This document shows positions 36,770 through 61,662 of a stretch of DNA of 64,000 nucleotides, piece by piece. Under the pieces are notes generated by a model. The model ran no database searches and was not told where the DNA came from. It saw only the letters and a list, made by a program, of their open reading frames with translations. The stretch's first letter is position 1, and every line of letters starts with the position of its first letter. The stretch spans positions 21,556-85,555 of the forward strand of contig JAKPOP010000015.1 in assembly GCA_029547805.1 (NCBI GenBank), given 5' to 3'. The DNA is from Deltaproteobacteria bacterium (GTDB lineage: Bacteria > Myxococcota_A > UBA9042 > DTJE01). The translations under genes and the position numbers were made by a program.

Positions 36770-36978
36770 GTCCGGTCCGGCTGGATACTTCCTTTGCCAG
36801 GGGTTGTCAATGGCATCGCTGGTCCGCCCTGCGGTTCCCCTCCGCCCGAGGGACTCCTGTTTCACGAGAGGGAGTGACGGTTCCATCGCGGAACCCGCCC
36901 CGTGCAATTTCCATTGGAGGGCCTCGCGGGGAGTGGTAGGGTTTCCCGTCGGGCATCTCGGCGCCGGAGGACCCTGAC

Positions 36979-38355: not shown

Positions 38356-38539
38356 CCCCGCCAGATCAGACGGCCCCAATGAGGCCGCCGGGTCCCCGCA
38401 ACCGTCCCGTTGGCCCTGCGACAGGCCCGCACGGCTCCCAGGGTCCCGCCAGCCACTCCCGGATGTCTTCCACCCAGCGCCATCGAGGGACCGCGACCCG
38501 AGGTCGGCAGCCTCCTTGACAGGACCGCGGACCCGGGGT

Positions 38540-38555
38540 ACGTAATCGTTTGCGT
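38540..38555. promoter_or_regulatory. Imperfect LacI-type palindrome ACGTAATCGTTTGCGT
   Basis: 12 of 16 positions are self-complementary, and the GTTTGCG half matches the 36756 site. It lies ~50 nt upstream of the LacI-family gene start. Confidence 0.4.
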
Positions 38556-38607
38556 GGACGTCGCCTCCTGCGGCCCGTCCCGCCCCCGGTCCTCCGAGGA
38601 CGTTGCG

Positions 38608-41123: not shown

Positions 41124-41125
41124 CC

Positions 41126-44924: not shown

Positions 44925-45802
44925 CGATCACTTTCCTGGGAGACCTCTGCCGGGATGTCAACATCATCCACGGGGAGGCCCACGCGATGATCGGCGGCGG
45001 GGTCCTGCACAACGGGATGACCGCCCGGGGCATCGGTGCCCACGCGGTGGTGGTCACCCGGTGTTCCCCGGAGGACGAACCGGAGATGACCCGCATGCTG
45101 CGGGAGGCCGGGGTGGAGGTGCATGCCGGAAACGGCCCCACGACCTCCATCGAGAACCTCTACCCCGATCACCACCCGGACCACCGGGTCTCCCGGTTGC
45201 TGTCCCGGTGCGCCCCCTTCACCGAGTCCGACCTCGCCCACGTCCGGGGGGAGGTGGCCCATGTCAATCCCCTCTGGGCCGGGGCCTTCCCGGAGGCGCT
45301 GCTCCCGGTCCTGCGGGCCAGGGTCCGGGTGCTGGGGGCCGATGCCCAGGGGTTCCTGCGACAGGCCGACGAGTCGGGCCGACTGGTCCTGCGGCCATGG
45401 GCCGGCCAGGAGCGCTGGCTCCCGCTGTTCGACGTCTTCAAGGCCGACCTCACCGAGGCGGCGGTGATGACCGGGACCGAGGACCCCCGGGAGGCGGCCC
45501 GGTCCCTGACGGCGATGGGGGTCCGGGAGGTCCTGCTGACCCACCGGGATGGGGTCTGCGTTTCCGACGGCCAGTCCTTCCACGAGGCGGCCTTCGGGCC
45601 CTACCCCCTCTCGGGGCGCACCGGCCGCGGCGACACGTGTTCCGCGGCCTACCTGGTCGCCCGCCAGCGCCTGGCCCCCGGCCCTGCCACCCACTACGCG
45701 GCCCGGGTCACCGCCCTGAAACTCCAGCACCCCGGCCCCTTCGGGGGACAGGGAGCGCCCTACCCATCCCAACTCGCGGAGATCCTGAACGTTTCGCAAT
45801 AG
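44921..45802 (+). CDS. iolC: PfkB-family carbohydrate kinase (candidate 5-dehydro-2-deoxygluconokinase)
   Basis: The PfkB C-terminal signature is GRTGRGDTCSAAYL. There is an ATGA overlap with the iolD stop. It is the last gene of the iol operon. It is shorter and more divergent than a classical IolC. Confidence 0.72.
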   Translation: MTITFLGDLCRDVNIIHGEAHAMIGGGVLHNGMTARGIGAHAVVVTRCSPEDEPEMTRMLREAGVEVHAGNGPTTSIENLYPDHHPDHRVSRLLSRCAPFTESDLAHVRGEVAHVNPLWAGAFPEALLPVLRARVRVLGADAQGFLRQADESGRLVLRPWAGQERWLPLFDVFKADLTEAAVMTGTEDPREAARSLTAMGVREVLLTHRDGVCVSDGQSFHEAAFGPYPLSGRTGRGDTCSAAYLVARQRLAPGPATHYAARVTALKLQHPGPFGGQGAPYPSQLAEILNVSQ

Positions 45803-45872: not shown

Positions 45873-46289
45873 ATGGGTGCGGTGGTTCGCTTCAGTGCGT
45901 CGATCGAGGAGGACCTGTTCCGGCAGTTCGAGGAGGCAACCCGCCGCCGGGGCTATTCCAATCGATCCGAGGCCCTGCGGGACCTGATCCGGGACTCCCT
46001 GGTCCGGGAGGAGTGGGAAGGCGACCAGGAGATCGTCGGGACGGTCACGCTGGTCTATGACCACCACATCCGGGAACTCTCGGACCGCCTCACGGCCCTG
46101 CAGCACGACCATCACCGCGTGATCCTGTCGGCCATGCACGTCCACCTGGACCATGACAACTGCCTGGAGGTCATCGCGGTGAAGGGCCGGGCCTCGAAGG
46201 TCCAGAAGATCGCCGACGCCCTGATCGGTACCCGGGGAGTCAAGCACGGCCGCCTGACGGCCACCACCACCGGCAAGCGCCTCAGATAG
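45873..46289 (+). CDS. nikR: Nickel-responsive regulator NikR (ribbon-helix-helix plus ACT-like metal-binding domain)
   Basis: RFSASIEEDLFRQFEEATRRRGYSNRSEALRDLIR is the RHH domain. HHIRELSDRLTALQHDHHRVILSAMHVHLDHDNCLEV carries the His/Cys Ni-site residues. Confidence 0.9.
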   Translation: MGAVVRFSASIEEDLFRQFEEATRRRGYSNRSEALRDLIRDSLVREEWEGDQEIVGTVTLVYDHHIRELSDRLTALQHDHHRVILSAMHVHLDHDNCLEVIAVKGRASKVQKIADALIGTRGVKHGRLTATTTGKRLR

Positions 46290-47004
46290 GCCCCCGGTGA
46301 TCGGCAGGCATGCGTTCGGCCCACCACCGGGCCACCCGTCCAGGGTCCTCCGTGTCCAGGCAGACCCGGCCCCCATCGAGGACCAGGAAGCGGGAGCAGA
46401 CCGTCCTGGCGAACTCCAGGTCATGGGTGGCCAGGAGGATCGCGGTGTCCAGCCGGCCCAGGAGCAGGGCCAGGCTCCGGCGTCCCACGGGGTCCAGGGA
46501 GGCCGAGGGCTCGTCCAGCAGCAAGAGTTCGGGCCCCGTGACCAGGACCCCGGCCAGGGCCACCCGTTGCTTCTCGCCGTGGGAGAGGTGGTGAACCGGG
46601 GCCTCGGCCAGGGACGCGACGCCAAGGTCCGCCAGGACCTCCCGGGCCCGGATCAGGGCCTCGGAGGCCGGCATCCCCCTCCGCAACAGACTGAAGGCGA
46701 CGTCCTCCTCCACGGTCGGGAACAGCAACTGGTCCTCGGGAACGTTGAACAGGAACCCGACCTGCCGACGAATCTCCCCCAGCGAGTGCCGGTCGAGCCG
46801 CCGGCCGCCAACGTGGATCAGGCCCCGGTGCGGAACCAGACCCACCGCGGCCTTCAACAGCGTCGTCTTGCCACTCCCGTTCCGTCCCACCAGGGCGACC
46901 CGCTCTCGGTGCCCCACCACCAGGGAGACCCCCTCGAGGACCCCGGGCCCTGGGGACTCGTAACAGACCGCGACGTCCTCGAATGCGATGGCCGGGGGAG
47001 TCAT
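46282..47004 (-). CDS. cbiO: ECF/ABC transporter ATPase (CbiO/EcfA-like)
   Basis: Walker A GRNGSGKTT, signature LSHGEKQRVA and Walker B LLLLDEP. The start at ATG 47004 overlaps the cbiQ stop (ATGA). Confidence 0.9.
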   Translation of the reverse strand: MTPPAIAFEDVAVCYESPGPGVLEGVSLVVGHRERVALVGRNGSGKTTLLKAAVGLVPHRGLIHVGGRRLDRHSLGEIRRQVGFLFNVPEDQLLFPTVEEDVAFSLLRRGMPASEALIRAREVLADLGVASLAEAPVHHLSHGEKQRVALAGVLVTGPELLLLDEPSASLDPVGRRSLALLLGRLDTAILLATHDLEFARTVCSRFLVLDGGRVCLDTEDPGRVARWWAERMPADHRGPI

Positions 47005-47747
47005 CGCGCCCCCCAGATCCACAGGGAGACGACCAGAGACAGGACCGCCAGTCCCAGGGCCACCCGGTCCCGTCCCCCGGGACGACAGGATCGAAGAGGC
47101 GCCGGGTCCGCCTCGGCATATCCCCGGATGGCCATCGCCTCCCCCACCCGCTCGGCCCGGGAGGCCACCCGGGGAAGCCAGACCCGAGGCAGCGCCCGGG
47201 CCAGTGCCACCGCCCCCCTGCCCCGCCCGGTCGCGCCCCGAAGGTTCCAGGCCGCGGCGACGGCCCCGGTCTCCGACGCCAATGTCGCGGTCTGGTGGAC
47301 AATCTGCAACAGGATGGCAGTGACGATGGCCGGAATCGGCAGCCTGACCAGGGCCTCCCGGAGGTCGCTCGCCGTCAGGGACGCAAGGGTCGCTCCGCAG
47401 ATCAGGATCCCGCCGATGCCTCGAATGATCACGGCGGCAGGAACGGCCAGGGCCTCCCGGACCCCTCCCCCCTCGGGGACCGAGACCCATGGAACCAGCA
47501 GGAAGTACGGCAGGAACAGGGCCAGGCCCAGCAGGAGGCCGGCACCGACCAGTCGGAGCGGGGGACGGATCGCCACCACCCAGGCCCCCAGAACCACCAG
47601 GGCCCAGAGGGTCCCAGGGACCGACGGGACCGGCGACGACAGGTACGCCGCCAGCACCAGCAGACCGGCCCCCAGGCGGGTTGGGGGACACAGGGACCGC
47701 ACCGGACCGGTCGCCGATCCCCACAGCCGGTGCCAGGAGGTCCGCAT
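47001..47747 (-). CDS. cbiQ: ECF transporter transmembrane (T) component, CbiQ-like
   Basis: A multi-TM protein with the ARG-type coupling region (AAWNLRGATGRGRG...AMAIRGY). It is positioned between the S-like component and the ATPase. Confidence 0.8.
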   Translation of the reverse strand: MRTSWHRLWGSATGPVRSLCPPTRLGAGLLVLAAYLSSPVPSVPGTLWALVVLGAWVVAIRPPLRLVGAGLLLGLALFLPYFLLVPWVSVPEGGGVREALAVPAAVIIRGIGGILICGATLASLTASDLREALVRLPIPAIVTAILLQIVHQTATLASETGAVAAAWNLRGATGRGRGAVALARALPRVWLPRVASRAERVGEAMAIRGYAEADPAPLRSCRPGGRDRVALGLAVLSLVVSLWIWGAR

Positions 47748-47752
47748 CCCGC

Positions 47753-48364
47753 CTACTCCCGTGGCTTCTCCCCGGTCACCAGGTAGCGCCGTTCCGTGTC
47801 TTCCATCGTCCGGACCTGGAACCCGACGGTCTCCAGCAGCGCCGCGGTCTGGTCCCCTGGCGCCAGCAGGTCCGATCCCACGGGGCCTCCCTTGCCCTGG
47901 TGGATCTCATTGACCCGCTGCCGGGAGATCAGGTGCCAGACGTGCAACAGGCCGCCGGGCCGGAGCACCCGGAAGACCTCCCTGGCCACCCCGTCCGGAT
48001 CTCGGAAGTGGGGCCATACGCCGAGGCAAAAGACCCGGTCGCACCGGCCATCCCCGATGGGCAGCCGGCAGGCGTCGGCGACATTCCAGGACACGCGCCC
48101 ATCGTGGATCTTCTCCCGAGCGACGGCGATCATCGCCGGGGAAAAGTCCACCGCCACCACCCGGCCCTCCGGCGAGAGGCAGTCCAGGATCGCCCGGGTC
48201 AGGTTGCCGGTGCCGCACCCGATATCCACCACCGTCTCCCGAGGCCCCACGCCGAGTTCCGACAGGCCCTCCTGGAGCAGCAGGCGCAACCGATCCAGGT
48301 CCTCCCATCCGTCCCAGTCCCGGGCGATGGCATCGAAGAAGGCCACTCTGGGGTCATCAGGCAT
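47753..48364 (-). CDS. Class I SAM-dependent methyltransferase
   Basis: Motif I is VVDIGCGTGNLT. Also present: VVAVDFSPAMI and LRPGGLL. It is embedded inside the ECF transporter operon and overlaps the upstream gene by 8 nt. Confidence 0.85.
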   Translation of the reverse strand: MPDDPRVAFFDAIARDWDGWEDLDRLRLLLQEGLSELGVGPRETVVDIGCGTGNLTRAILDCLSPEGRVVAVDFSPAMIAVAREKIHDGRVSWNVADACRLPIGDGRCDRVFCLGVWPHFRDPDGVAREVFRVLRPGGLLHVWHLISRQRVNEIHQGKGGPVGSDLLAPGDQTAALLETVGFQVRTMEDTERRYLVTGEKPRE

Positions 48365-48908
48365 CGGTTTCCTCCAGGGAATGGGGCTCGCCGGTCCGCC
48401 CCAGGGATCGCCGGGACGCCCGAACCACCGGCGGAATCACCGCCATCATGAGCAGGATCCCAGGCCACCCGCTCAGGAAGGAGACCCCGGCCAGGAAGGA
48501 CGCTGGCAGGTCGATCCACCACGAGAAGGCATAGACCAGGCCCACCTGCAGCAGGCGCCCTCCCGCGAGCACCGGGGCCAGCACGAGCCACTCCGGGACC
48601 CGGGGCCACCGGTGGGACACCACCGAGATCACCAGCGCCATGGCCCCCAGTTCCAGGGCCATGAAGACCGCCACCGGAGGATAGAACGGCGGCATCCCGG
48701 TGGCCGCCCCGGACAGCAGGGGCGTCACCAGGGCCGTGACCGCCGCAGCCGCAGGCCCCACGAAGAACGGCAGCGTGCACAGGGGCAGGTACATGGGCAT
48801 GAAGACGGACCCGAGGTGCAGCAGGTGGAACAGCACCGGCAGCAGCAACGCCGCAGCCCCGAAAAGGCCGCACCAGGCCAGTTCCCGGGGCGTCAACCGA
48901 CCGCTCAT
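48357..48908 (-). CDS. Small polytopic membrane protein, putative ECF substrate-capture (S) component (family unassigned)
   Basis: It has ~6 hydrophobic segments (GLFGAAALLLPVLFHLL, PLCTLPFFVGPAAAAV, PVAVFMALELGAMALVI...). The start at ATG 48908 overlaps the TonB-receptor stop (ATGA). It is not a canonical CbiM (no MHI..G N-terminus). Confidence 0.55.
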   Translation of the reverse strand: MSGRLTPRELAWCGLFGAAALLLPVLFHLLHLGSVFMPMYLPLCTLPFFVGPAAAAVTALVTPLLSGAATGMPPFYPPVAVFMALELGAMALVISVVSHRWPRVPEWLVLAPVLAGGRLLQVGLVYAFSWWIDLPASFLAGVSFLSGWPGILLMMAVIPPVVRASRRSLGRTGEPHSLEETDA

Positions 48909-50818
48909 CCGCCCAACCCCACCTTCAGGCCCGCCAGGACGTGGAACCCGGGCATCTCGTAGCCCCGGATGTATTCGTACTTCCGATTCATCAGGTTGCG
49001 AAGGACCAGCCAGGGCTCCAGGGTCCAGTCCTTGCCAGGGGGCTCCAGGCGGTAACGCACCGCCAGGTCCAGGAAGAAGGGGTCCGGGATCGGTTCCCGG
49101 CGGTAGTTGGCCATGTAGAGGCCATGCACCCACTCGCCGCTGACCTCCCCTTCCAGGCGATGGGAACCCCACCGGTGTCCCAGCGTAGCGGCGAAGTCCA
49201 GCATCGCCTCGGGATTCTGGCGGGTGTAGCGGCCGACCCGCTGCCAGGACCCGGCCACCGTCGCCCCGAAGGGTCCCAGGTCCCGGACTCGGACCCGCCC
49301 CTCGAGGCCCCAGACCGTGTAGGCATCGATGTTGACCACCTCAGCGGCCGGCCAGGACCCGAAGTACCGGATCAGGTTCCGGGCCTGCGATCGATAGGCG
49401 GTCAGGGAGACCTCCAGGTGCCGGAAGTCCTCGTAGCCCAGCGTGGCGTCCCAGTTCAGGGAGGTCTCGGGCCGCAGGTCCGGGTTCGCGACGGGATAGG
49501 GCAGATAGAGTTCCCGGATCGTCGGCTGGCGGTAGTTCCGGGTGACCCGGGTGCGCACGGACCATCCCCGCCAGAAGTTCCAGCGGACCCCGGCCTTCCC
49601 GAGCCAGAGGAACCCCCATCTCAGGCTGTAGAGTTCCCGGGACCCGACCACCAGGGACAGCCCCTGGACGGGCCGCCAGAGGACCTGTTGCCAGGCCGCC
49701 AGGTCCACCATCGCCCGGACATCCGTCGCGGTCCCCTGGATGCGGTTGCGGACCTCCCCGTCCATGTCCTGGGCCTCAACCCCCCCCAGGACCTCCCAGT
49801 TCCGATGTGGCCGCCAGCAGACCTCGCCCCGGCCACCCAGGGTCCAGTCCAACGACTGGAATCCATCATGGAGCCGGTGGCGACCCAGGGTCGCGTAGGG
49901 CAGCAGGGTCACCCGGAGCCCCGGGCGCTGGTACTCGAGGGCCCCCGAGAGGTTGTCCCTCCAGACATCGAAGGTGTGGTCCGTGAAGGGATGCTGGACC
50001 GTGCCGGGGTCACCGCCGGTGACGTGGACCGCCTTGTTGCGCAGCACCAGGGACCACCCCGGGGCGAGCCGAAGGCGCCCGGCGCTCTGGATCACCAGCA
50101 CGCTGCCGCCGGCCCCGTCCCGGTGGCCATCGGTTCGCATCCCATGGAGGGCGAAGGCCCCCTCCCATCCATCCTTCCGTCCCAGGGCCGTCACGGTGCC
50201 CTGGAGGGTCGCAAAACTGCCGTAGGCGGCGTCCGAGCGTACCTCCCATCCATCCTCGGGCAACCAGCGGCTCCGGAGCACGATGGCGGCCCCCATCGCG
50301 TTGCTGCCGTAGAGCACCGAGTCGCCGCCCTCCACCACGACGGCCTGGTCGATCAGGTCCGGGACATAGGCATCCGGAAGGGGATGTCCGAAGATGCCCT
50401 GGACGTCGGGCACGCCGTCCTCGACCACCAGGACCTGGGTGTTGGGGCTTCCTCCGAGCCCCCGGACCGTCAGGCCCCCGGCGGCGCCGCTGGCAACCCC
50501 CGCGGGCCCGACACCGCGCCGAGTGACGTGGATGGACGCCGATTCCTGGGCCAGGGCCTCGAGCAGGGTCGGTCTGGGGCTCTCCCGCAACCGCTCGCCG
50601 GGAACGGCCACCTGGTCCTGGGTCTGGTCCGGCGACACGGGCCGCGAAGCCTGGATCACGGTCTGGTGGTCCGGCGCCGCACCGGGCGTCGGCACGGCAG
50701 CATCCCCCGGCTCCTCCCCCTCCTCGGGCGGCGGGGACGGGGCCTCCTCGGGGGATCCGGCCCTGGCCGGCGGACCCAGCACCAGCAACAGGAACACCAG
50801 CCACGGAGCGCCGCGCAT
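48905..50818 (-). CDS. TonB-dependent outer-membrane receptor
   Basis: The signal peptide is MRGAPWLVFLLLVLGPPARAG. Plug motifs include LLEALAQESASIHV, GLTVRGLGGSPNTQVLVVEDGVP and VVVEGGDSVLYGSNAMGAAIVLRSR. The start is at Met 50818. Confidence 0.88.
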   Translation of the reverse strand: MRGAPWLVFLLLVLGPPARAGSPEEAPSPPPEEGEEPGDAAVPTPGAAPDHQTVIQASRPVSPDQTQDQVAVPGERLRESPRPTLLEALAQESASIHVTRRGVGPAGVASGAAGGLTVRGLGGSPNTQVLVVEDGVPDVQGIFGHPLPDAYVPDLIDQAVVVEGGDSVLYGSNAMGAAIVLRSRWLPEDGWEVRSDAAYGSFATLQGTVTALGRKDGWEGAFALHGMRTDGHRDGAGGSVLVIQSAGRLRLAPGWSLVLRNKAVHVTGGDPGTVQHPFTDHTFDVWRDNLSGALEYQRPGLRVTLLPYATLGRHRLHDGFQSLDWTLGGRGEVCWRPHRNWEVLGGVEAQDMDGEVRNRIQGTATDVRAMVDLAAWQQVLWRPVQGLSLVVGSRELYSLRWGFLWLGKAGVRWNFWRGWSVRTRVTRNYRQPTIRELYLPYPVANPDLRPETSLNWDATLGYEDFRHLEVSLTAYRSQARNLIRYFGSWPAAEVVNIDAYTVWGLEGRVRVRDLGPFGATVAGSWQRVGRYTRQNPEAMLDFAATLGHRWGSHRLEGEVSGEWVHGLYMANYRREPIPDPFFLDLAVRYRLEPPGKDWTLEPWLVLRNLMNRKYEYIRGYEMPGFHVLAGLKVGLGG

Positions 50819-50828
50819 CCGGGCCTCC

Positions 50829-51248
50829 TCAGTGCCCGTAAGGGCCCGGAATGGAAAAATCCTGCTCCAGCGCGTCGCCCCCCTGGACCTCGATGACCCG
50901 GAAGTCCCCGGCGTCGACGGTCCACTGGGCCACGGTCTGGTAGTTGAACCACAGGGGCCCGGTGGTTGCCTCCTCGGGGTCCATCCGTTGCTCCGCGAAC
51001 TGGTCCAGGTCCAGTTTCTGGAAGTGCACCTGGTCCCGACCCGGAAGGCAACGCCTGGGGACCGTCGCATCCCCGTAGTTGAGGGTCGCCTCCCAGCGGC
51101 ACCCGTTGAAGGAGGGATTGCGGATCACCACCGCGGTGTCGATGCGGTTCACGACGACGACCTCCGGGTAGCGGAGGTCGCAGCCCAACAGGCCCCCGAT
51201 GGCCAGCAGCCAGAGGCGAGACCGGGGAACCTGGCGGCGGCGTTTCAC
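50829..51248 (-). CDS. Small lipoprotein, unknown function
   Basis: The GTG start at 51248 gives VKRRRQVPRSRLWLLAIGGLLGC (a lipobox). It is a ~139-aa Cys-containing protein directly upstream of the TonB receptor. Confidence 0.5.
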   Translation of the reverse strand: MKRRRQVPRSRLWLLAIGGLLGCDLRYPEVVVVNRIDTAVVIRNPSFNGCRWEATLNYGDATVPRRCLPGRDQVHFQKLDLDQFAEQRMDPEEATTGPLWFNYQTVAQWTVDAGDFRVIEVQGGDALEQDFSIPGPYGH

Positions 51249-51258
51249 CCGCGCCTCG

Positions 51259-51756
51259 CTACTCTGGCAGGCACTGGGTGTTCTCCGTGCGCTGGGCATA
51301 GGGCTTGAATCCGTACTCGGGGTACAGTTCCAGGATGCGGTTATAGACCGTCTCCGGAATGGGCGGAACCCCCTCCGGCGGGCAGGGGCCCTGGTGGCTG
51401 GGCTTCCCGATGGCAATCGTCCGGGTCTGGCCGTCCACCACCTCCTCCTCATTTTTCGATGCGATGGGCAGGCAGTTCTCCGGGTGGCACTCCGGGTCGT
51501 CCCAGGCGGCGACCATGAGCACGTAGTCCAGCCCCGGCTCGACCTTCTGGGGCGCCGAGGTCTCTCCGATGCCGATCCGGCCGAACTCCACCCCCAGGTA
51601 GGTGGCCCGGCAGATCGTCCACGGGGGCTTGAACCCCTCCACTGCAGGGTTGTTGAAGTCATTCTGGATCTGCACCGTCGCCGACTCGGTACCCGTCTCG
51701 CACCCTGCGACGGCCACGGTCCACAGCCCCAACGCCACGAGCATCCGCCTGTCCAT
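51259..51756 (-). CDS. Small lipoprotein, unknown function
   Basis: MDRRMLVALGLWTVAVAGC (a lipobox). It is 165 aa with several Cys residues and is the first gene of the lipoprotein / TonB receptor / ECF operon. Confidence 0.6.
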   Translation of the reverse strand: MDRRMLVALGLWTVAVAGCETGTESATVQIQNDFNNPAVEGFKPPWTICRATYLGVEFGRIGIGETSAPQKVEPGLDYVLMVAAWDDPECHPENCLPIASKNEEEVVDGQTRTIAIGKPSHQGPCPPEGVPPIPETVYNRILELYPEYGFKPYAQRTENTQCLPE

Positions 51757-51782: not shown

Positions 51783-51811
51783 GATATTACGACTGTCCCG
51801 GAAGTAATATC
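51783..51811. promoter_or_regulatory. Perfect dyad GATATTAC-N13-GTAATATC (candidate NikR operator)
   Basis: A perfect 8-bp inverted repeat separated by 13 nt, 27-55 nt upstream of the first gene (start 51756) of the putative Ni/Co uptake operon. The two half-sites separated by more than one helical turn match the architecture of known NikR operators. Confidence 0.5.
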
Positions 51812-52013: not shown

Positions 52014-54179
52014 TCAACGTCCCGGCGGGCGGAACGACGGGGATCGCGTGAGGCCGTCCCACCGGTGATCCAGCAGGGCCAGCAACAGCCCCAGCAGACG
52101 ACGGTCCCCGGGTTCGCCGGCGGGAGTCTCCCGGAGCAGGCACAGGCGAAAATGTCGGGACGCCAGGAAGGCCTCGGTCCGACTCTCGCCCCCGAACAGG
52201 TCCCCCTGCAAGACCCGATCCCCCACCCGGATCCCCAGGCGCAGGGCCCCCTCCTCCGATCCCTCCACCGGGCGCAGAGAGGCGATGCGGAGACTGCCGA
52301 GGTCCCCGGGAAGCCCCCGGGCCAGCACCCGAGCCACGTCCCGGACCACCCGGGCCTCCCGTGGCAGGGTCTCCTCGCCCACCAGGGGGTCGAGCCAGTC
52401 GGCCACCGGGGTCGCCCCCCTTTCCTGGGAGGCCCTCAGCACCACCCTGGGGTCCTCCCGGAGCCGCCGATGCCGGGGCCGGGGGTCCTCGTCCAGGGGG
52501 CATCGCCGGGCCGCCTCGGCCAGAGCACCGGACAGCAGCGCCCGGGGGTCCTGCTCCACGCCGTCCCGTTCCACCCGGTCCAGCAGCACCAGTCCCAGGT
52601 CCAGCGGCAGGAACCGGGCCCCCTGGACCAGATCCCGGATCCACGGGAAGTCCGGGTCGTCGCGGAAGTACCAGCACTCCGCTCCGTCGTTCCAGGCCGC
52701 GAAGGCCCGGACGAACCATCGGAAGAAGCAGGCAGTGCGCGGGTCCAGGAAGTGCCAGGGAAGGGCCCCGTGGATGTCCTCGAACAGGGTCACCGGCACA
52801 TAGAGGATTCCCCGGTCCTCGTAGTGGTCCCGGAGGATGCCTCCCTGGGCCCGTGCCAGGGCGGTGATGGGCGTCGTGCGGACCAGGAGCAGGGTCGACA
52901 CCATCCAGAAGCCCGTCGGGTCCAGGCCCAGCCGCCGCCCCTCCTCCAGGTTGATCCGGATGTCCTCCGGGAGGGTCCAGGGGGTGAAGAAAATGAAGGA
53001 CCAGGCCGATCGTCCGCCGTCGCCGTGGAAGAACTCGAACCCCTCGGGGAAGCGCTGCTGCCACTCCTGCTGCAACGCGATGACCCCCTCGATGTGGTCC
53101 ATGGTCAGGCGCTTGTTGAACCGGGCCATCTCCGCCGGAGAGAAGGTCTCGATGCCCATGATCAGGGTCTTCAGCACGTGCCCCGCGGCCAGCATCCCGG
53201 GAATCGCCGCCTCGATGGCCTCCCGCTCGCGCAGCACATCATCCAGCCGAGGAGCGAAATAGAACGTCGAGGGGGGCATCTCCAGGTCCAGCACCATCCG
53301 ACAGAAGCGCTGCACCTCCGAGAGCATGTCGTAGTCAAAGACCATGTAGGCATTCTTGTTCCGCAGCGACCGTCCCGGCGGCGCGGCCAGGATGCGCCGC
53401 AACTGGCTCTCGATCAGGGCCAGGCGATCGACGCGGGGCGAGTGCAGGGGCGGTGTCGGGGAGCCGCCGCAATAGGAGCAGCCCGTGATGACTCGACACT
53501 CCTTGAGGTCCACCCCGTCGAAGATCGGGTTGTCGGCCACCGACGGCTTGCCCCCGCAGGAGACCCCGCTGACCAGCACCAGGTTGCTCCCGGCGGCGGC
53601 ACTCTCCTGGTCCAGGGGCTCCGCGTCGTAGTGCGGCGTCACGTGTTCCACCAGGTACCGGGTCGCCTCCTCGGGGGCCTCGATGCCCAGGAATCGCAGG
53701 AACCAGTAGGGACGGGCGTAGTACCAGGGATTGTCCCGCGGATGAAGGGTCCGGGCCACCTGGGCCAGCACCGGGTCCGGACCCTGGAGATACTCCTCGC
53801 GACGGAAGTGGAATTCCTTGCCGGCGGGCATCGACAGGATGACCAGCCCCGGCGGGGTTGCGCCCCGGATGGCCTCCTCGGTCTCCCGGGAGAGGTCCTC
53901 CGTGACCACCAGATGGGTCGGGGCGAAGTCCCGAAGACGGCGGGCCAGCGTCTCCAACTGTCCCGGTTCCAGGTCGGCGTGGAGCAGCCGCCCCTCCTGC
54001 CGATCCTCATGGCGACGGATCCGGGAGAGGGCGAACCACCACTGGGCCTCCACCCCGTGCTCTCGGGCCGTCCCCAGCAGGAACGGGAAGAACATGCTCC
54101 GCTCGTTGACCCGGTCGTACTGGACCAGGAATTCCAGCAGGACCAGCCTCGGGGGCGCTCCCGCCTCGGGTCGTTCCAT
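52014..54179 (-). CDS. Large radical-SAM-like protein (N-terminal Rossmann/B12-binding-like region, CX5CX2C motif, long unique C-terminal region)
   Basis: The 721-aa ORF has coding-like composition. The Cys cluster is KECRVITGCSYCGG (53469..53498). A radical-SAM-core-like stretch is TLIMGIETFSPAEMARFNKRLTMDHIEG. It is the last gene of the minus-strand nitrogenase-like operon. The family assignment is tentative. Confidence 0.55.
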   Translation of the reverse strand: MERPEAGAPPRLVLLEFLVQYDRVNERSMFFPFLLGTAREHGVEAQWWFALSRIRRHEDRQEGRLLHADLEPGQLETLARRLRDFAPTHLVVTEDLSRETEEAIRGATPPGLVILSMPAGKEFHFRREEYLQGPDPVLAQVARTLHPRDNPWYYARPYWFLRFLGIEAPEEATRYLVEHVTPHYDAEPLDQESAAAGSNLVLVSGVSCGGKPSVADNPIFDGVDLKECRVITGCSYCGGSPTPPLHSPRVDRLALIESQLRRILAAPPGRSLRNKNAYMVFDYDMLSEVQRFCRMVLDLEMPPSTFYFAPRLDDVLREREAIEAAIPGMLAAGHVLKTLIMGIETFSPAEMARFNKRLTMDHIEGVIALQQEWQQRFPEGFEFFHGDGGRSAWSFIFFTPWTLPEDIRINLEEGRRLGLDPTGFWMVSTLLLVRTTPITALARAQGGILRDHYEDRGILYVPVTLFEDIHGALPWHFLDPRTACFFRWFVRAFAAWNDGAECWYFRDDPDFPWIRDLVQGARFLPLDLGLVLLDRVERDGVEQDPRALLSGALAEAARRCPLDEDPRPRHRRLREDPRVVLRASQERGATPVADWLDPLVGEETLPREARVVRDVARVLARGLPGDLGSLRIASLRPVEGSEEGALRLGIRVGDRVLQGDLFGGESRTEAFLASRHFRLCLLRETPAGEPGDRRLLGLLLALLDHRWDGLTRSPSFRPPGR

Positions 54180-54238: not shown

Positions 54239-55060
54239 TCAGACGTCCAGGTCCCGCAACAAGCCCATCAGTTCCCGCCGCTCCAGGGGGACCGGCAGCG
54301 GCAGGTCCGGGGGCAGCGGGGCCCGGACTGCCTCGGCCAGGGCACGGAACCGCTCCGCCGCCTCGCTGGTCGGGGCATCGTCAATCACGGTCCGGTTGCG
54401 CCGCTCTGCCTCCCGGACCTCGCGACTCCAGGGAATGAAGCCGAGCACCCGGGCCTTCAGGCGCCCGGCAAAACCCCTCAAGGCCTCCTCGATGGCCGGG
54501 TCCAGGGCCTTCACGTTGAAGACGATCCCTGCGAGTTGCACCCCGTCGTCCACATGGTTCAGCAGGGCCTTGCAGACGTTGTTCGCGGCGTAGAGGGCCA
54601 TCGGTTCCGCCGAGGCCACGATCACGACCCGGTTGCCCAGGCCGTAGCGCAGGGGAGCCACGAAGCCTCCACAGACCAGGTCCCCCAGGACGTCGAACAA
54701 CGCCACGTCGTACGGCCACGAGAGGAGATCCCGGGCCTCCAGCCAGTCGAAGAGGTTCGCGACGCCGCGACCCGCGCACCCGACCCCCGGGTCCGGGCCC
54801 CCGATCTCGATGGTGTCCACCCCCGTGGGCCCGGGCACGATCACCTCGTCGGGACGGCGCCTGTTCAGGGACCGGTCCGCGATGAAATCCAGCACTGCCG
54901 GGCCCTCCCGGTCCCCCCGCAGACGAAGGGACGAGTCCATCTTGGGGTCGCACCCCACGTGGAGCACCCGGAGCCCGGCCTCGCGCCACGCGGCGCTCAG
55001 GTGCACCGCCACCGTGGACTTGCCGATTCCCCCCTTGCCGTAGAGCACCACCCGCAACAT
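54239..55060 (-). CDS. NifH/BchL-family ATPase (nitrogenase-like reductase component 2), copy 1
   Basis: MLRVVLYGKGGIGKST (P-loop), GCDPKMDS (switch I), GGPDPGVGCAGRGV and FDVLGDLVCGGF (the two [4Fe-4S] Cys ligands), and YAANNV. The start is at Met 55060. Confidence 0.9.
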   Translation of the reverse strand: MLRVVLYGKGGIGKSTVAVHLSAAWREAGLRVLHVGCDPKMDSSLRLRGDREGPAVLDFIADRSLNRRRPDEVIVPGPTGVDTIEIGGPDPGVGCAGRGVANLFDWLEARDLLSWPYDVALFDVLGDLVCGGFVAPLRYGLGNRVVIVASAEPMALYAANNVCKALLNHVDDGVQLAGIVFNVKALDPAIEEALRGFAGRLKARVLGFIPWSREVREAERRNRTVIDDAPTSEAAERFRALAEAVRAPLPPDLPLPVPLERRELMGLLRDLDV

Positions 55061-55079: not shown

Positions 55080-56375
55080 TCAGAGCGGGGTTCGAAACCC
55101 GCGCACCAGGGCCGCATCCCTCCACTGGGACGCCTCGACCAGCCGATCCGTGAGCCACAGCGCCCCCTCGAATCCCAGCCAGGGCTCCGGCCGCGTGGGA
55201 TGGCGCAGGAAGTTCGGGTACCCCAGGGGAAGCAGCCCCGGAACCGGCAGCGGATCCGGGAAGGCCGTCGATGCGATGCGCAGGTCGGCCTCCGGCTCCG
55301 GAACCTCGTCATGCGGCGCCTCGAAGACCCAGGAGCCGTCCACCACCGGGTCCCCGTCCAGGTGCTCCCGTCTCCCCAGGACGTCCACGAGCACCGTCTC
55401 CACCCCCAGGTCATCCAGGAAGTCCCGAAGTCCCCGGACCAGGAAGGGGTCCCCCTGGATCACCGCCTGCCGCCCGTGCAGGAATCGAAAGGCCCGGTCC
55501 CGGACCAGTGGCACGACCCGGGTCAGTTCGCGGTCCAGGAAGGTCTCGCCCGTCTCCCGCAGCCCCAGGGCCTCGGCGACGGCCCGGACAAAGGCGCCGG
55601 TCCCCCGCAATCCCACCGGGAGCGGGGCCTGCACGCAGGGAACTCCCAGGCGTCCCGCGAGGATCCGCCCCGCCGCCCGCCCGTATGGAAGGGTCACCAC
55701 CGCCGAGGCCCGCCCCGCCCGGGCCAGATCGGTGACCAGGCGGCCGTCGAGCCACAGAGAGGCGATGTCCGCCCCGACACCACGAACGAGCCGGTAAATC
55801 TCGTCGACGTTGCCCAGGCAGTCCCCCTCCCGCCGATCCATCAGGTGCCCCACCACGGCCACCTGCCCCGGCAGCGGTCCCCCAGGGTCCAGGTCCAGGT
55901 CCGCCGCCAGCCGCTCCAGCACCCGGGAGTGACCGTCGATCCAGTCCGCCTCGAGGGACTCGGAAGGGACCCGGACCACCCGGGCATGCCCCTTCGCCTG
56001 GGCCCGCCGGCGATGCTGCTCCAGCGGCTCGTTGAGCAGGTGGTTGAAGTCCATGCTGGACACGACGACCAGACGAAAGCGGGGGTCCTGGGCAGCGCCC
56101 TCCAGCACCTCGCCGATGTCGCGGCTGCGGTTCAAGGCCATGCTGGGAACGACGCTGGTGTTGAACCGGATGTCGGTGTGGAGCAGGCGACCGGGCCCGT
56201 CGGCCCGCACCAGGTCCGAGGCGGGGTCGTGGGCCATGTGCAACTCGGCCTTCTGGACCAGACAGTAGGGACCGTCGACCACGAGGGCCGCGTCCCGGAT
56301 GGCGCTGACGGCGAGGTAGAGTCCATTCAGAAACGGGAGGTTGTGGGGGATCGGGGGCCGGGAGGCGCGAGTCAC
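55080..56375 (-). CDS. Nitrogenase component-1-like subunit, small (431 aa), copy 1
   Basis: It is a paralogue of 61663..62967 and has an Oxidored_nitro-like architecture (VVDGPYC..., VAVVGHLMDRREGD..., LPYGRAAGRILAGRLGVP...LPVGLRGT). The GTG at 56375 overlaps the upstream stop (GTGA). Confidence 0.75.
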   Translation of the reverse strand: MTRASRPPIPHNLPFLNGLYLAVSAIRDAALVVDGPYCLVQKAELHMAHDPASDLVRADGPGRLLHTDIRFNTSVVPSMALNRSRDIGEVLEGAAQDPRFRLVVVSSMDFNHLLNEPLEQHRRRAQAKGHARVVRVPSESLEADWIDGHSRVLERLAADLDLDPGGPLPGQVAVVGHLMDRREGDCLGNVDEIYRLVRGVGADIASLWLDGRLVTDLARAGRASAVVTLPYGRAAGRILAGRLGVPCVQAPLPVGLRGTGAFVRAVAEALGLRETGETFLDRELTRVVPLVRDRAFRFLHGRQAVIQGDPFLVRGLRDFLDDLGVETVLVDVLGRREHLDGDPVVDGSWVFEAPHDEVPEPEADLRIASTAFPDPLPVPGLLPLGYPNFLRHPTRPEPWLGFEGALWLTDRLVEASQWRDAALVRGFRTPL

Positions 56376-58498
56376 CGGGCACCTCCGGCCAGGTAGGTCG
56401 CAAAGGCCCGCAGAGGCAGGTGTTCCGCTGCCCGAAGCCACCGTTCCAGGGACCTCCGGGCCCCCTGGAGGCCCATCTCCAGGTCGTGTTCCGAAAAGAC
56501 CCCCTTGCCGGCCCGGGTGACCCGGGGGTCGGCGGTGAAGTGGGAATAGACCAGGGAGACATCCTGCGCGGCCATCTTGCGAGTCAGGTCGTCGGGGTCT
56601 TCGAAGAACTGCATCGACAGGCGTCGGGCCAGGGGGTGACGTGCCAGTCGCTCCTGCAGGAAGGCCGGGTCATTGCCCTCGGGCCAGACCAGGAAGCGAA
56701 CCAGGAAGCCCATCTCCAACAGCACGTCCAGCATCGAGAAGGCATTCACCGGGGTGGTGTCCAGCAGGAGGTCCAGTTCCTCCAGGTCCGTCACGAAGGC
56801 CAGCACATGGCCCGAGGCCCGTCCTCGCAGGGTCTCCCAGGCATCGCGGCTTCGCTGATCCAGGGTGTCCACTGCCTGGAGCGCGGCCTCCGGATCCGGG
56901 AGATGACGAGCGACCTCCCTCAGCCAGGCCAGCGTTCCCTCCCGTCCGAACGGGGCCCGGGGGCGCACGAGCCGCACCGGAAGCCCGTCGAAGGCCAGTT
57001 CGGAGATGTCCGACAGGGCCGTCTGGCGGGCCCAGACCAGCACCGAGGCCTCGGCGATTCGTTGAAACTCCTCCCGGCCCACCCGGGGGAGCACGACCCC
57101 CAGGGGTCTGGCACCGATGGTTCCTGTGAGTTCCAACAGTTCCCTGTCCTCTTCTGAAGAACCACCGCCCAGCACCGCGACTCCCCGGGGGTCCCGCGGG
57201 GCCTGGGCGGGAGCCGCGGCCTCCAGGCGATCCCGGAGGAGGCGAGAGGTGTAGCCCCCGAAGTCGTTGGCCGCCCCCAACCAGTAGAACCGGGCCCGCG
57301 TCCTGGCTGCGGCCTTCCGGAACAGTGGCACAGGATTGTCCCCGATGACGTCCGGCAGGCACCCCGTCATCAGCACCACGGCGTCGCGGTCCGGATCCGC
57401 AACGGCTCCCTCGATGGCCTGCTCCAGTCGCCGCATCGTGTGGCCAGCCAGCACCACGGGTCCATGGAGGTCCGTCATGCGGACGTCGCACTCCCGGTGC
57501 CAGCCGCCGACCTGGACGTCCCGGCCATAGCGGAAGAAGGTCCCGTCCGGAGGAACCCAGGGGGACTCTGAGAAGACGCACTCCCGGGACTCGTGGATCA
57601 CCAGCGAGTCCTTGGGCCCCGGCTGGAACAGGTTCACGATGCAGCGGCTCAAGGGATAGTGGAAGCGCCGCCAGCGATCCGTGGCGTCCCAGCGCCGGAT
57701 GAACGCCTCGTGGCGAACCCGCGGGTAGAAGCGCTGGAGGTAGGAGTCCGGGGCCAGCGGAGGCGCGGCGGAATCCTGCACCGGCGGGTCCTCGACGCCC
57801 CCCGGGGGCACCCGGAGGCGGGCTCCCCGGACCAGCAGGCGGGCGACGGCGAAGCCGGCCAGGCGCTCCGGCTGTTCCGCGAGGCGGCCCCGTTCGCCTG
57901 GAGGCCGAGGATCCTGGACCACGCGAAACGACAGTTCCCGGAGGCCGCAGAGGCGAACTCCCGGCGGGTCCCCGGGAACCCGGATCGGCGCCAGGCGGAA
58001 GACCAGGGGAGGTTGGTCCGGCTGCTGGAACCGGAACTCCAACCCGTCCGGCACCGGACGAAAGAGGTCCACCAGCCGGTAGGTCCCCCAGGTGGTCACG
58101 CCGGGGATCAACCACGGGGACAGGACCGCGGCCCATGTCTGCTCCGTGAACGGCAGAACGGCCTCCTCCCCAGGGCCCCATCCCAGGAGGGGCTCCGTGG
58201 AGGCCAGTGCCGCCAGGCGGTCCGGGAAGTCCCCCAGGTCCTCGGGGGCGAGGTCATGGAGCCAGAGGAGGCCCGGCAGTCCCGGATGGGACAGCGACGG
58301 GTCCACCGGAACTCCAGGGGGAACCCATCGCACCGCGGCCCGTCGCCCGGCTCCCAGGAACCGGAAGGTCACGGAACCGTCCCGCTCCAGCAGGACCTGG
58401 CGACAGGCCATGCCCGGAAGCCCCAGGCGATCCGCCCAGAGGGGCAGGCAGTCCCAGAGTCCCGGCGTCCCTTCCGTTCCGCGAGGCGGTTCCTGCAT
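56372..58498 (-). CDS. Nitrogenase component-1-like subunit, large (708 aa, with a ~297-aa N-terminal extension), copy 1
   Basis: The C-terminal ~410 aa has NifD/E/BchN-like motifs: VIHESREC, RECDVRMTDLHGPVVLAG and VLMTGCLPDVIGDN. I chose the start at Met 58498 (MQEPPRG); the ORF extends to 58687. Confidence 0.75.
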   Translation of the reverse strand: MQEPPRGTEGTPGLWDCLPLWADRLGLPGMACRQVLLERDGSVTFRFLGAGRRAAVRWVPPGVPVDPSLSHPGLPGLLWLHDLAPEDLGDFPDRLAALASTEPLLGWGPGEEAVLPFTEQTWAAVLSPWLIPGVTTWGTYRLVDLFRPVPDGLEFRFQQPDQPPLVFRLAPIRVPGDPPGVRLCGLRELSFRVVQDPRPPGERGRLAEQPERLAGFAVARLLVRGARLRVPPGGVEDPPVQDSAAPPLAPDSYLQRFYPRVRHEAFIRRWDATDRWRRFHYPLSRCIVNLFQPGPKDSLVIHESRECVFSESPWVPPDGTFFRYGRDVQVGGWHRECDVRMTDLHGPVVLAGHTMRRLEQAIEGAVADPDRDAVVLMTGCLPDVIGDNPVPLFRKAAARTRARFYWLGAANDFGGYTSRLLRDRLEAAAPAQAPRDPRGVAVLGGGSSEEDRELLELTGTIGARPLGVVLPRVGREEFQRIAEASVLVWARQTALSDISELAFDGLPVRLVRPRAPFGREGTLAWLREVARHLPDPEAALQAVDTLDQRSRDAWETLRGRASGHVLAFVTDLEELDLLLDTTPVNAFSMLDVLLEMGFLVRFLVWPEGNDPAFLQERLARHPLARRLSMQFFEDPDDLTRKMAAQDVSLVYSHFTADPRVTRAGKGVFSEHDLEMGLQGARRSLERWLRAAEHLPLRAFATYLAGGAR

Positions 58499-58755
58499 TG
58501 TGCTGCACCCCGAGCCCGAAGGCAGTCTATGCCCAGGGCCCGCGCCTATCAAGGCGACCCCGCGATGTCGGGCCCCGGACCGACGCGCGACAGGAACCTC
58601 CGGGTGTTGGAGGAGAATCCCATCCACGACACCGCCATCGTTCGAGGCGGCGGGTCCCCCTCGCGGTTCGATGGCCCCCAGGGCCACGGCCGAGGATTCC
58701 GGGTCTCGTTTCGCCGCGTCCGCGAGTAGAATCCTTCCGCACCGGGGAGGCTCCG

Positions 58756-59586
58756 ATGCGAGAGATCGTGATCGCCGGCAAGGGGGGCATCGGCAAGTCC
58801 ACGCTGGTGACCAACCTGGCCGTGCTGGCGGCCCGGCGGGGCCTCAAGGTCCTCCAGGTGGGCTGCGACCCGAAGCACGACTCCTGCACCCGGCACTTCG
58901 ACCGACGGTTGCCCACGGTGATGGACCTCTTCAAGGAGAAGGGCCGGGTGGACCGGCAGGACATCGAGGGCATCCTGGCCCAGGGCCGCACCGGGGTCTT
59001 CGGGGTCGAGGCGGGGGGACCCTCCCCCGGGGAGGGCTGCGCCGGGAGGGCCATCTCCCTGCTGCTGGAGTTCATGCGCAGCGCAGGGGACCTCTTCGAC
59101 CGCTTCGACCTGGTCCTTTACGACCTCCTGGGGGACGTGGTCTGCGGGGGCTTTGCCGCCCCGATCCGCCGAGGCCCCGACACCGCCATCTATCTGGTCA
59201 CGTCGGGAGAGATCCTGCCCACCTACGCCGCGAACAACATCGCCCAGGGCATCCGGAACCTGTCCCGGCGCGGGGGCGGACGCCTGGGGGGCATCCTGGC
59301 CAATCTCCGGGGGACTCCCGGCGAGCGGCAGATCCTGGAACGCTTCGCCGCGGGTCTTGGCACCCAGGTGACGGGCTGGATCCCCCGGGATCCGGCGGTC
59401 TTCGCCGCCGAGCAGGCCCGGCGCACGCTGATGGAACACGCCCCGGACTCCCCGGCCGCCCGGGCCATCGAGGCCCTGGCCCGGAGGATCCTCGACGAGC
59501 CGCCGGACCTGGTCGTGCCGACCCCCCTGGAGGAGGAGGCCTTCGAGGCCCTGTTCTCGCCCTGGCGGGAAGGGGAGGTTCGATGA
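58756..59586 (+). CDS. NifH/BchL-family ATPase (nitrogenase-like reductase component 2), copy 2
   Basis: MREIVIAGKGGIGKST, VLQVGCDPKHDS, GGPSPGEGCAGRA, YDLLGDVVCGGFAAPIR, SGEILPTYAANNI and RLGGILAN. GGGGAGG is upstream of ATG 58756. Confidence 0.9.
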   Translation: MREIVIAGKGGIGKSTLVTNLAVLAARRGLKVLQVGCDPKHDSCTRHFDRRLPTVMDLFKEKGRVDRQDIEGILAQGRTGVFGVEAGGPSPGEGCAGRAISLLLEFMRSAGDLFDRFDLVLYDLLGDVVCGGFAAPIRRGPDTAIYLVTSGEILPTYAANNIAQGIRNLSRRGGGRLGGILANLRGTPGERQILERFAAGLGTQVTGWIPRDPAVFAAEQARRTLMEHAPDSPAARAIEALARRILDEPPDLVVPTPLEEEAFEALFSPWREGEVR

Positions 59587-61655: not shown

Positions 61656-61662
61656 GGTACCG

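Follow-up and report, generated by a model that had tools for sequence, protein, structure and literature searches.

Within a 64,000-nucleotide stretch of DNA from a deltaproteobacterium (contig JAKPOP010000015.1 of GenBank assembly GCA_029547805.1, forward-strand positions 21,556 to 85,555; hereafter the window, whose own numbering is used throughout), the minus-strand gene at 52014-54179, referred to here as the target, encodes a 721-amino-acid (aa) protein and is part of an apparent 12-kb operon that also contains nitrogenase-like genes. Predicted structure and profile comparisons make it well supported that the target belongs to a large, divergent, and unrecognized subfamily within the radical S-adenosylmethionine (SAM) superfamily, beyond the reach of curated models. 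The family has three invariant cysteines, which we read as a probable cluster triad, C208-x25-C234-x2-C237 (CX25CX2C), and its linkage to nitrogenase-like genes recurs in two phyla. On balance, we think it probable that the target is an active class-B-like radical-SAM enzyme with a cluster on these three cysteines, tailoring the molecule on which the adjacent, putatively Group VI, nitrogenase-like reductase acts.

Reading frame, protein family, and predicted fold

The minus strand of 52014-54179 holds 721 codons from ATG to stop; translation of the plus strand yields mostly proline and arginine and not the protein described here. The original prediction, made from the sequence alone, had placed a 721-aa open reading frame (ORF) at these coordinates and left the strand unstated, and all of the peptides that it quoted are found in the minus-strand product (RLVLLEFLVQYD, aa 11-22; KECRVITGCSYCGG, aa 226-239; TLIMGIETFSPAEMARFNKRLTMDHIEG, aa 338-365). 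The G+C fractions at the three codon positions (0.74/0.50/0.87) are as in genuine genes of this 70% GC window, the identical 721-aa product appears in public gene calls on 11 metagenomic contigs, and a word-indexed homologue search returned close orthologues with 84% and 82% identity. Given this coding GC pattern, the orthologues, and the size of the family, we rejected the idea that the target is a chance ORF or a pseudogene.

That family is large and unannotated. The word-indexed search found the two close orthologues only, also when repeated with an 89-sequence alignment, and the target has no Pfam-A or NCBIfam match at an E value of ≤0.01. An exhaustive HMMER search of 1.84 billion representatives returned 552 related clusters (defined at 50% identity) at E ≤ 1e-3, 173 of them at E ≤ 1e-30, and every member that we looked up by name was a "hypothetical protein." Scanning species-representative genome contigs with an alignment of 13 closer sequences gave 79 loci, nearly all in Myxococcota (including genomes under the older label "Deltaproteobacteria") and Elusimicrobiota, and the genomes concerned often carry several paralogs. 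NCBIfam models applied to ten relatives gave only faint matches to the ArsL and CUAEP-tail radical-SAM models (E values of 2e-4 to 0.02), too weak to use; the two ArsL (arsinothricin radical-SAM enzyme) matches, in P0018 and P0101 (E values of 2e-4 and 7e-3), fall over the strand-4/5 region and are likewise too weak for interpretation. A relation to BchE, NifB, or HmdB was rejected, as none of these was returned by any search.

To describe the fold, we used an AlphaFold (AF2) model built from 89 relatives, which reached a predicted local distance difference test score (pLDDT) of 89.2 and a predicted template modeling score of 0.80; a model from three sequences only was unusable (pLDDT, 40). 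The gene and the domains of its product are as follows.

52014-54179, minus strand: target gene, 721-aa divergent radical-SAM-like protein (ORF and translation, coding GC of 0.87 at third positions, orthologues, 552 related clusters)
53832-54149, minus strand: predicted N-terminal alpha/beta (Rossmann/flavodoxin-like) domain, aa 11-116, in the place of the class B cobalamin-binding domain (AF2)
53592-53822, minus strand: predicted helical linker, aa 120-196 (AF2)
52740-53588, minus strand: radical-SAM-like partial barrel core, aa 198-480 (core profile A4, relatives' PF04055 matches, AF2 beta/alpha alternation)
52500-52742, minus strand: predicted helical bundle, aa 480-560 (AF2 helices 480-501, 511-519, 525-539, and 545-559)
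52044-52379, minus strand: predicted C-terminal alpha/beta domain, aa 601-712 (AF2 block with a pLDDT of about 85-97)

The N-terminal domain alternates strands (aa 11-18, 44-51, 89-92, and 113-116) with helices (aa 31-40, 72-85, and 98-107), and a low-confidence linker joins the helical bundle to the last domain. The tail of about 330 aa that had been called unassignable is thus partly assignable in the model, as the end of the barrel (to about aa 480), the helical bundle, and an alpha/beta domain; the last of these, which only part of the family has, keeps its earlier standing, with no Pfam match and no assignment.

A Foldseek search of the PDB with the model gave two significant matches only, each with a Foldseek probability of 1.0: OxsB (5ul2; E value of 2e-9 over 703 aligned columns) and CysS (9n1d; E value of 5e-6). 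The next matches had E values of >0.01 and were to generic Rossmann-type folds. The radical-SAM-like protein with a class-B-like layout (N-terminal alpha/beta domain, barrel, C-terminal extension) of the original prediction is supported by the AF2 model and these fold matches. The partial (beta/alpha)6 barrel of the superfamily is seen in the predicted structure only, and a class B architecture is suggested by the predicted alpha/beta domain at aa 11-116 and by OxsB and CysS as the best whole-chain matches, at a TM-score of at most 0.39. This architecture suggests cobalamin use, which no sequence signature supports: B12 binding by the N-terminal module, as had been proposed, finds no backing from PF02310, which matched none of eight long relatives at E ≤ 0.001.

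OxsB, the cobalamin-dependent enzyme of oxetanocin biosynthesis, is both the best structural match, at nearly full length, and the sole marginally significant PDB sequence match, in register at the CxxC and GxExxS...KG motifs. It is 744 aa long against 721 aa for the target, and both are multidomain proteins with a helical bundle after the barrel. They differ in that their identity is 12% and their TM-score 0.39; OxsB has a canonical CX3CX2C motif (its last two cysteines are C318 and C321) in place of C208-x25-C234-x2-C237, the target barrel starts about 100 residues earlier, and the target has an extra C-terminal alpha/beta domain, with cobalamin binding only putative. Presumably, the target also has one N-terminal domain fewer. 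CysS, a myxobacterial cobalamin-dependent radical-SAM methyltransferase of cystobactamid biosynthesis, shares the class B architecture but has 11% identity to the target, a TM-score of 0.31-0.34, no sequence-level match, and a different Cys motif.

Sequence comparison pointed in the same direction. A core-only profile (A4) run against 177,635 PDB sequences matched OxsB with an E value of 0.004, in a register that puts family tGCsFC on OxsB S-R-C318-T-F-C321 and family mGvEnfS-x6-fNKg on OxsB iGVESGS-x6-YgKG. Thus, what had been described as a core-like stretch does align in register with a radical-SAM core segment, IGVESGS...YGKG. Full-length profiles gave only chance matches to the PDB sequences (e.g., USP4 and copper nitrite reductase). 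When the core sequences of 20 relatives were scanned singly, eight matched PF04055 weakly, with a best E value of 1.8e-5; the match of P0116 (28.5 bits, with the cutoff at 29.5 bits) covers profile positions 10-138 and therefore starts at the second Cys. Taking the fold result and the sequence matches together, we regard radical-SAM homology as well supported.

The cysteine triad and associated motifs

Conservation was counted on an hmmalign alignment of 253 distinct family sequences, in which the denominators vary by position. The sites concerned are the following.

53556-53558, minus strand: Cys208 codon, invariant first Cys of the probable triad, five residues past strand beta1
53496-53498, minus strand: Cys228 codon, first Cys of the CX5CX2C motif of the original prediction; not conserved
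53469-53480, minus strand: C234-S-Y-C237, invariant CxxC, aligned with OxsB C318-T-F-C321
53109-53159, minus strand: MGIETFSPAEMARFNKR (aa 341-357), strand-4 motif, aligned with OxsB IGVESGSNQQLKRYGKG
52974-52994, minus strand: IFFTPWT (aa 396-402), identified by conservation

Cysteine is found at position 208 in 246 of 246 sequences and at positions 234 and 237 in 247 of 247 each. Between the first and second of these cysteines, the spacing varies from 18 to 33 residues and is most often 25 (178 of 246 sequences). In the AF2 model, C208 lies five residues beyond the end of strand 1 (aa 198-203), the usual place of the first Cys in the canonical motif. DSSP assigned isolated bridge residues at positions 213 and 232 of the model, which suggests that the C208-C234 insert is a hairpin closed at its base that would bring C208 near C234. 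Conservation extends to the residues around the triad: 246 of 247 sequences have F or Y at position 236, directly ahead of the last Cys, E344 is near-invariant (249 of 250), K356 is invariant, and the PWT of the IFFTPWT motif is almost fixed (P400, 251 of 251; W401, 250 of 251; T402, 248 of 251). We take IFFTPWT to resemble the "GxPGET" strand-5 motif of MiaB, HemN, and class B radical-SAM enzymes, and we assume that the aromatic residue before the last Cys and the strand-4 and strand-5 motifs are sites of SAM contact. An aromatic residue before the third Cys together with conserved strand-4 and strand-5 motifs is in keeping with membership of the radical-SAM superfamily.

The original prediction had placed the cluster elsewhere, in a C-x5-C-x2-C motif formed by C228, C234, and C237. 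This motif is indeed present in the target and in its nearest relatives (P0001-P0005), and HmdB provides a precedent for a CX5CX2C site (PMC4389238). It is not, however, a conserved feature of the family, as only 29% of relatives (60 of 204) have Cys at position 228, in contrast to C208. An HmdB-style reading fails for this reason. Moreover, the eight residues before C234 contain no Cys at all in 184 of 247 sequences (CX5C occurs in 59 and CX3C in 1), such that the family could not bind a three-Cys cluster via CX5CX2C, and the literal likeness to HmdB is accompanied by no homology in any search. We therefore consider it very unlikely that C228-x5-C234-x2-C237 binds the cluster in the manner of HmdB, with C208 incidental, and we read C228 as a probable subclade-specific extra Cys.

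Long spacers between the first two cysteines have a parallel in QueE, in which a CX14CX2C motif represents the canonical site with an extended first loop (PMC4389238); because such variants count as members of the superfamily, the lack of CX3CX2C leaves room for membership here. QueE resembles the target in this extension at the canonical cluster site; its subfamily, however, is unrelated, it is small and consists of one domain, and its spacer has 14 residues rather than 25.

We propose the following mechanism. C208, C234, and C237 would hold a [4Fe-4S] cluster, C208 replacing the first Cys of the canonical CX3CX2C, and an insertion of about 20 residues, folded as a hairpin, would stretch the loop to CX25CX2C much as the loop of QueE is extended. 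SAM binding, the role of the equivalent strand-4 and strand-5 motifs, would fall to the aromatic residue that precedes the last Cys and to E344, K356, and the PWT motif. SAM would then be cleaved reductively to drive a radical tailoring step (methylation, cyclization, or similar) on a molecule handled by the adjacent Group VI reductase, which may be a tetrapyrrole if the literature proposal discussed below is correct.

The same residues bear on whether the protein cleaves SAM at all. It could instead be a degenerate radical-SAM fold that binds an iron-sulfur (Fe-S) cluster without cleaving SAM and serves as an electron carrier, scaffold, or substrate-presenting partner, as might be expected of a protein that has lost the canonical motif and is unmatched by the Pfam model. 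In the target and 29% of its relatives, position 228 provides a fourth Cys nearby, and in this subclade C208, C228, C234, and C237 could fully ligate a cluster, leaving no open iron for SAM. However, conservation as strong as that of the cysteines is seen at the F/Y ahead of the last Cys, at E344 and K356, and at P400-W401-T402, which is unexpected for a carrier; 71% of the family has only the three conserved cysteines, an arrangement that leaves a unique iron; and normal chemistry can go with an extended loop, as in QueE. We judge a degenerate fold to be unlikely, though worth keeping in view, and continue with the reading of the target as an active enzyme.

Association with nitrogenase-like genes

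The target lies next to one of two sets of nitrogenase-like genes in the window.

54239-55060, minus strand: NifH-like Fe protein 1, 273 aa, with P-loop and Cys95/Cys130 (PF00142, 1e-70)
55080-56375, minus strand: NifK-like subunit 1, 431 aa (PF00148, 1.3e-31; the public gene call is also 431 aa)
56372-58498, minus strand: NifD-like subunit 1, 708 aa, extended N-terminally by about 340 aa (PF00148 on the C-terminal half only)
58524-58552, minus strand: sigma-70-like promoter match upstream of NifD-like 1, TTGATA-17-TAGACT (consensus match only)
58756-62967, plus strand: second, divergent nitrogenase-like set, consisting of NifH-like 2 (58756-59586), NifD-like 2 (59583-61655), and NifK-like 2 (61663-62967) (PF00142/PF00148)

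The target starts 59 bp past the stop codon of NifH-like 1, with a GAGGGG ribosome-binding-like element in the gap and no terminator-like site found between the two genes. Because of this short gap and the lack of such a site, the sequence agrees with the earlier claim that the two genes are cooperonic. From 58552, the minus-strand order is NifD-like, NifK-like, NifH-like, and target, followed by lipoprotein, TonB, ECF (energy-coupling factor), methyltransferase, CbiQ, and CbiO genes; all are separated by overlaps or by gaps of ≤59 bp, except for a 257-bp gap after the target. The NifD-K-H-target order is kept in all orthologous loci. The full arrangement is kept in the three other known loci with an 81-84% identical orthologue (L001/L002, L003, and L008, the last a Myxococcota metagenome-assembled genome), and the second nitrogenase-like set is arranged identically in L003 and L008.

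The linkage is real and extends well beyond this window. A local tblastn search with the six Nif-like proteins of the window against the 79 species-representative loci with 10-kb flanks (many loci with no Nif-like match being short contigs) found that 26 of the 79 have NifH/D/K-like genes at most 10 kb from the family gene and that 14 have them within 500 bp. These loci come from both Elusimicrobiota (e.g., L009-L013, L015, and L020-L022) and Myxococcota (L008, L028, L031, L036, L041, and L047), and the NifH-like proteins beside the Elusimicrobia members are 38-55% identical to those of the window. The association holds for part of the family and not all of it: distant members have, for example, a nitroreductase or a glycyl-tRNA-synthetase-like gene adjoining.

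Motifs, model scores, low Cys content, and taxa are consistent with assignment of the window's nitrogenase-like genes to Group VI. Both NifH-like proteins have a GKGGIGKST P-loop, Cys95 (GCAGRG), and Cys130 (CGGF), the counterparts of Azotobacter vinelandii Cys97 and Cys132, and NifH-like 1 scored well under the cutoffs of the NCBIfam nifH, CfbC, BchL, and BchX models. The NifD/K-like proteins match PF00148 weakly (50-110 bits) and have three to seven Cys per subunit, and Pfam and NCBIfam scans of the cluster found no NifB-like gene. According to a 2026 Chem Rev review (section 7), Group VI has no characterized member and its function is among the main open problems of the field; its NifD/K proteins lack the ligands of the iron-molybdenum cofactor and most P-cluster cysteines and are predicted to hold simple [4Fe-4S] clusters, and genomes with only Group VI lack NifB, whereas Group IV systems are colocalized with NifB homologues. 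Group VI paralogs are flanked by radical-SAM suites in Elusimicrobia; Gracilibacteria and 14 Myxococcales genomes have comparable loci, and tetrapyrrole reduction has been proposed for them (Meheust et al. 2020, bioRxiv 10.1101/765248). The window and the target family resemble these published clusters in the P-loop/two-Cys NifH, the adjoining radical-SAM genes, and the taxa (Elusimicrobia and Myxococcales) and contexts involved; the published clusters also have highly divergent NifD/K and no NifB, to which the weak PF00148 matches and the lack of a NifB-like gene in the cluster of the window may correspond.

Each of the two NifD-like proteins is about 700 aa long, with the component-1 domain in the C-terminal half only and an N-terminal region of 300-340 aa for which no Pfam match was found, NifD-like 1 included. 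The two NifH-like copies are about 36% identical to one another, judged by cross-hits on the orthologous locus L002. The window thus contains two distinct nitrogenase-like systems and one copy of the radical-SAM-like family.

Neighborhoods elsewhere in the family speak to the kind of chemistry involved. In the Elusimicrobia loci L011, L012, L013, L017, and L020, two to four tandem family paralogs adjoin the nitrogenase-like genes; in L087, a family member stands amid five canonical radical-SAM genes, two of them MiaB-like; and in the metagenomic proteins P0045, P0061, P0064, and P0132, the family domain is fused to a canonical Radical_SAM domain, with a SPASM domain as well in P0061 and P0132. 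The tandem paralogs, the L087 context, and the SPASM fusions favor a tailoring role. The four fusion proteins hence have two radical-SAM-type modules per polypeptide. In L004 and L005 (at about 8004-12076), a 36%-identical member directly follows a glycyl-tRNA-synthetase-alpha-like gene (PF02091) and has about ten small unannotated ORFs upstream, which may represent a peptide modification context. To look for further recurrent neighbors, all ORFs of 87 loci (the 40- to 64-kb region of the window and 86 fetched loci) were clustered; antisense ORFs of GC-rich genomes dominated the outcome, which added little.

The direct adjacency to NifH/D/K-like genes also raises the possibility that the target is a metallocluster maturase, a NifB substitute that builds or inserts the Fe-S cofactor of the NifD/K-like proteins and has no organic substrate. 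The colocalization of Group IV systems with NifB homologues and the lack of NifB in Group VI genomes fit such a role, and MarB and IsrB would be parallels for an Fe-S enzyme that uses SAM in such a position. On the other hand, the simple [4Fe-4S] clusters predicted for Group VI NifD/K would need no NifB-type chemistry, and NifD1 and NifK1 of the window have few Cys. The family shows no NifB similarity, its likeness being to class B enzymes with organic substrates; many of its members have no nitrogenase-like neighbor, and the tandem paralogs and SPASM fusions look like tailoring chemistry. We regard a maturase as distinctly improbable and prefer the reading in which the target tailors a molecule handled by the adjacent reductase.

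A number of results nonetheless weigh against that reading. Nothing relevant in Pfam matched the target at E ≤ 10, whether scanned whole or as three overlapping segments, and this holds for both radical-SAM (PF04055) and B12-binding (PF02310) models, the latter in the N-terminal 210 aa; no relative reached the PF04055 gathering score. The original prediction had named the lack of any significant match to such models as one outcome that would count against it; literally, this is what we found, yet the fold and core-profile evidence still favor radical-SAM homology. The OxsB sequence match is marginal only, and the whole-chain TM-scores are low (0.39 for OxsB and 0.31 for CysS), as expected with multidomain matches, yet they are not proof. 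When hhalign was used to compare the core profile with canonical radical-SAM sequences taken singly (nine, from the fetched loci and the fusions), all probabilities were <5%, although two of the nine alignments were in the expected register; the test was a weak one, because the compared sequences were SPASM or MiaB types and not class B. The canonical CX3CX2C motif is absent from the family bar the single CX3C in 247 sequences, and the proximity of C208 to C234 and C237 is only a model-based suggestion. Two-thirds of the family loci, including those of cultured Polyangium species, have no nitrogenase-like gene within 10 kb; a tie to nitrogenase-like enzymes therefore does not hold for the family at large. 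Finally, no tetrapyrrole biosynthesis gene was found in the cluster of the window.

The pairing of a radical-SAM protein with a nitrogenase-like enzyme in a context that does not look photosynthetic, for which the original prediction knew of no described system, is not new. It was reported for Group VI by Meheust et al. 2020 (bioRxiv 10.1101/765248), and isethionate reductase is a similar case of a nitrogenase-like enzyme paired with a radical-SAM protein (PMC11423573). BchE with DPOR/COR (the dark-operative protochlorophyllide and chlorophyllide oxidoreductases) and IsrB with isethionate reductase likewise share a pathway or locus with a nitrogenase-like reductase (PMC11423573), but neither BchE nor IsrB/NifB has detectable similarity to the target, and no photosynthesis or sulfonate genes were found in this locus. 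What appears to be new is this domain-model-invisible family as a recurrent radical-SAM-type neighbor of nitrogenase-like genes. The published Group VI counts are of radical-SAM genes recognized by domain models, some with B12-binding or HemN_C domains; the target family may have been missed there, because it is invisible to Pfam and NCBIfam and annotated as hypothetical, and earlier radical-SAM gene counts at Group VI loci are probably incomplete. The finding sharpens the acknowledged Group VI problem without solving it or revealing the chemistry. It offers a concrete protein for coexpression with the nitrogenase-like components in a substrate search, and the CX25CX2C variant joins the noncanonical radical-SAM sites, which matters for genome annotation.

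The downstream transport module and a candidate NikR operator

Downstream of the target, the apparent operon continues with a set of transport genes that converges on a gene for a nickel-responsive regulator.

51783-51811: perfect palindrome GATATTAC-N13-GTAATATC, candidate NikR operator, within the 257-bp gap after the target
46282-51756, minus strand: downstream same-strand genes (Pfam and NCBIfam matches; order kept in L001-L003 and L008), consisting of the next six entries
51259-51756 and 50829-51251, minus strand: two small lipoprotein-like ORFs
48905-50821, minus strand: TonB-dependent receptor
48357-48905, minus strand: ECF S-component-like membrane protein, about 180 aa (weak PF12822, E value of 5e-4)
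47753-48364, minus strand: SAM methyltransferase, UbiE type
47001-47747, minus strand: CbiQ
46282-47004, minus strand: CbiO ATPase
45873-46289, plus strand: NikR nickel-responsive regulator, convergent with cbiO (NikR_C, 1.7e-33, and RHH_1)

The palindrome is upstream of the first lipoprotein-like gene by about 27 bp, occurs once in the window, and had no match in 100 shuffles; it is kept in L001, L003, and L008, where the flanking sequence diverges. In our understanding it resembles a NikR box of the TTAC-N13-GTAA type. It is a good candidate for a NikR operator that would serve the lipoprotein/TonB/ECF/methyltransferase suboperon, and NikR itself is 85-92% identical across the orthologous loci. 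We found no NikR-operator-like inverted repeat at the divergent nif-like promoter or upstream of nikR. The S-component looks vitamin type and not CbiM/NikM type, as the N-terminal metal-binding motif of the latter is absent on reading of its sequence; with CbiQ and CbiO as its partners, it would make up an importer of the ECF type, whose substrate could be an organic compound and not a bare metal ion. Because the S-component looks vitamin type and no such site was found at the nif-like promoter, nickel control may be limited to the transport module.

These genes allow two further views of the target. The first is that the nitrogenase-like adjacency is incidental and that the target's function lies with the uptake genes downstream, under NikR control, or in some unrelated pathway. 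The candidate operator and the 257-bp gap that part the target from the transport genes do show the locus to be modular, and distant members occur in unrelated contexts, but the nitrogenase-like association recurs in two phyla and 26 of 79 loci, often within 500 bp, a rate at which chance adjacency is implausible because nitrogenase-like genes are rare. The 59-bp gap to NifH-like 1 with no terminator-like site, and the Elusimicrobia loci, which keep the Nif-like genes and lack the transport genes, also argue against it, and we hold it to be extremely improbable. The second view extends the preferred reading of a tailoring enzyme. Because a TonB/ECF/methyltransferase suboperon with a conserved candidate NikR operator lies directly downstream of the target, the CX25CX2C family might be a dedicated catalytic partner of Group VI reductases, the pair here building or dismantling an imported nickel macrocycle or chelate. 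That a nif-like/radical-SAM pair makes or dismantles a nickel macrocycle is possible but speculative, and we regard the full proposal as a long shot; if true, Group VI would gain its first functional handle, and a new type of radical-SAM reaction would be added.

The locus appears to span about 45.9-63.0 kb, because it is bordered by an unrelated inositol catabolism cluster upstream of NikR and by an endonuclease/phosphatase-family gene beyond the second nif-like set. An Rfam scan of the whole window gave no match. The inositol-catabolism-like cluster, at 34640-45802, is unrelated to the target and includes genes for an IolG-type oxidoreductase, a xylose-isomerase-like TIM (triosephosphate isomerase) barrel protein, a major facilitator superfamily transporter, a LacI regulator, an aldehyde dehydrogenase, an aldolase, IolB/KduI, and an IolD-type thiamine pyrophosphate enzyme; a nitroreductase-family gene lies just upstream of it at 34008-34634. 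Farther away, the minus-strand segment at 30374-33713 has a GC content of 0.63-0.64, compared with about 0.70, and encodes a 433-aa ORF with no match and a 765-aa protein for which DNA-methyltransferase and DUF1156 matches were faint; this segment may be an acquired restriction or defense island.

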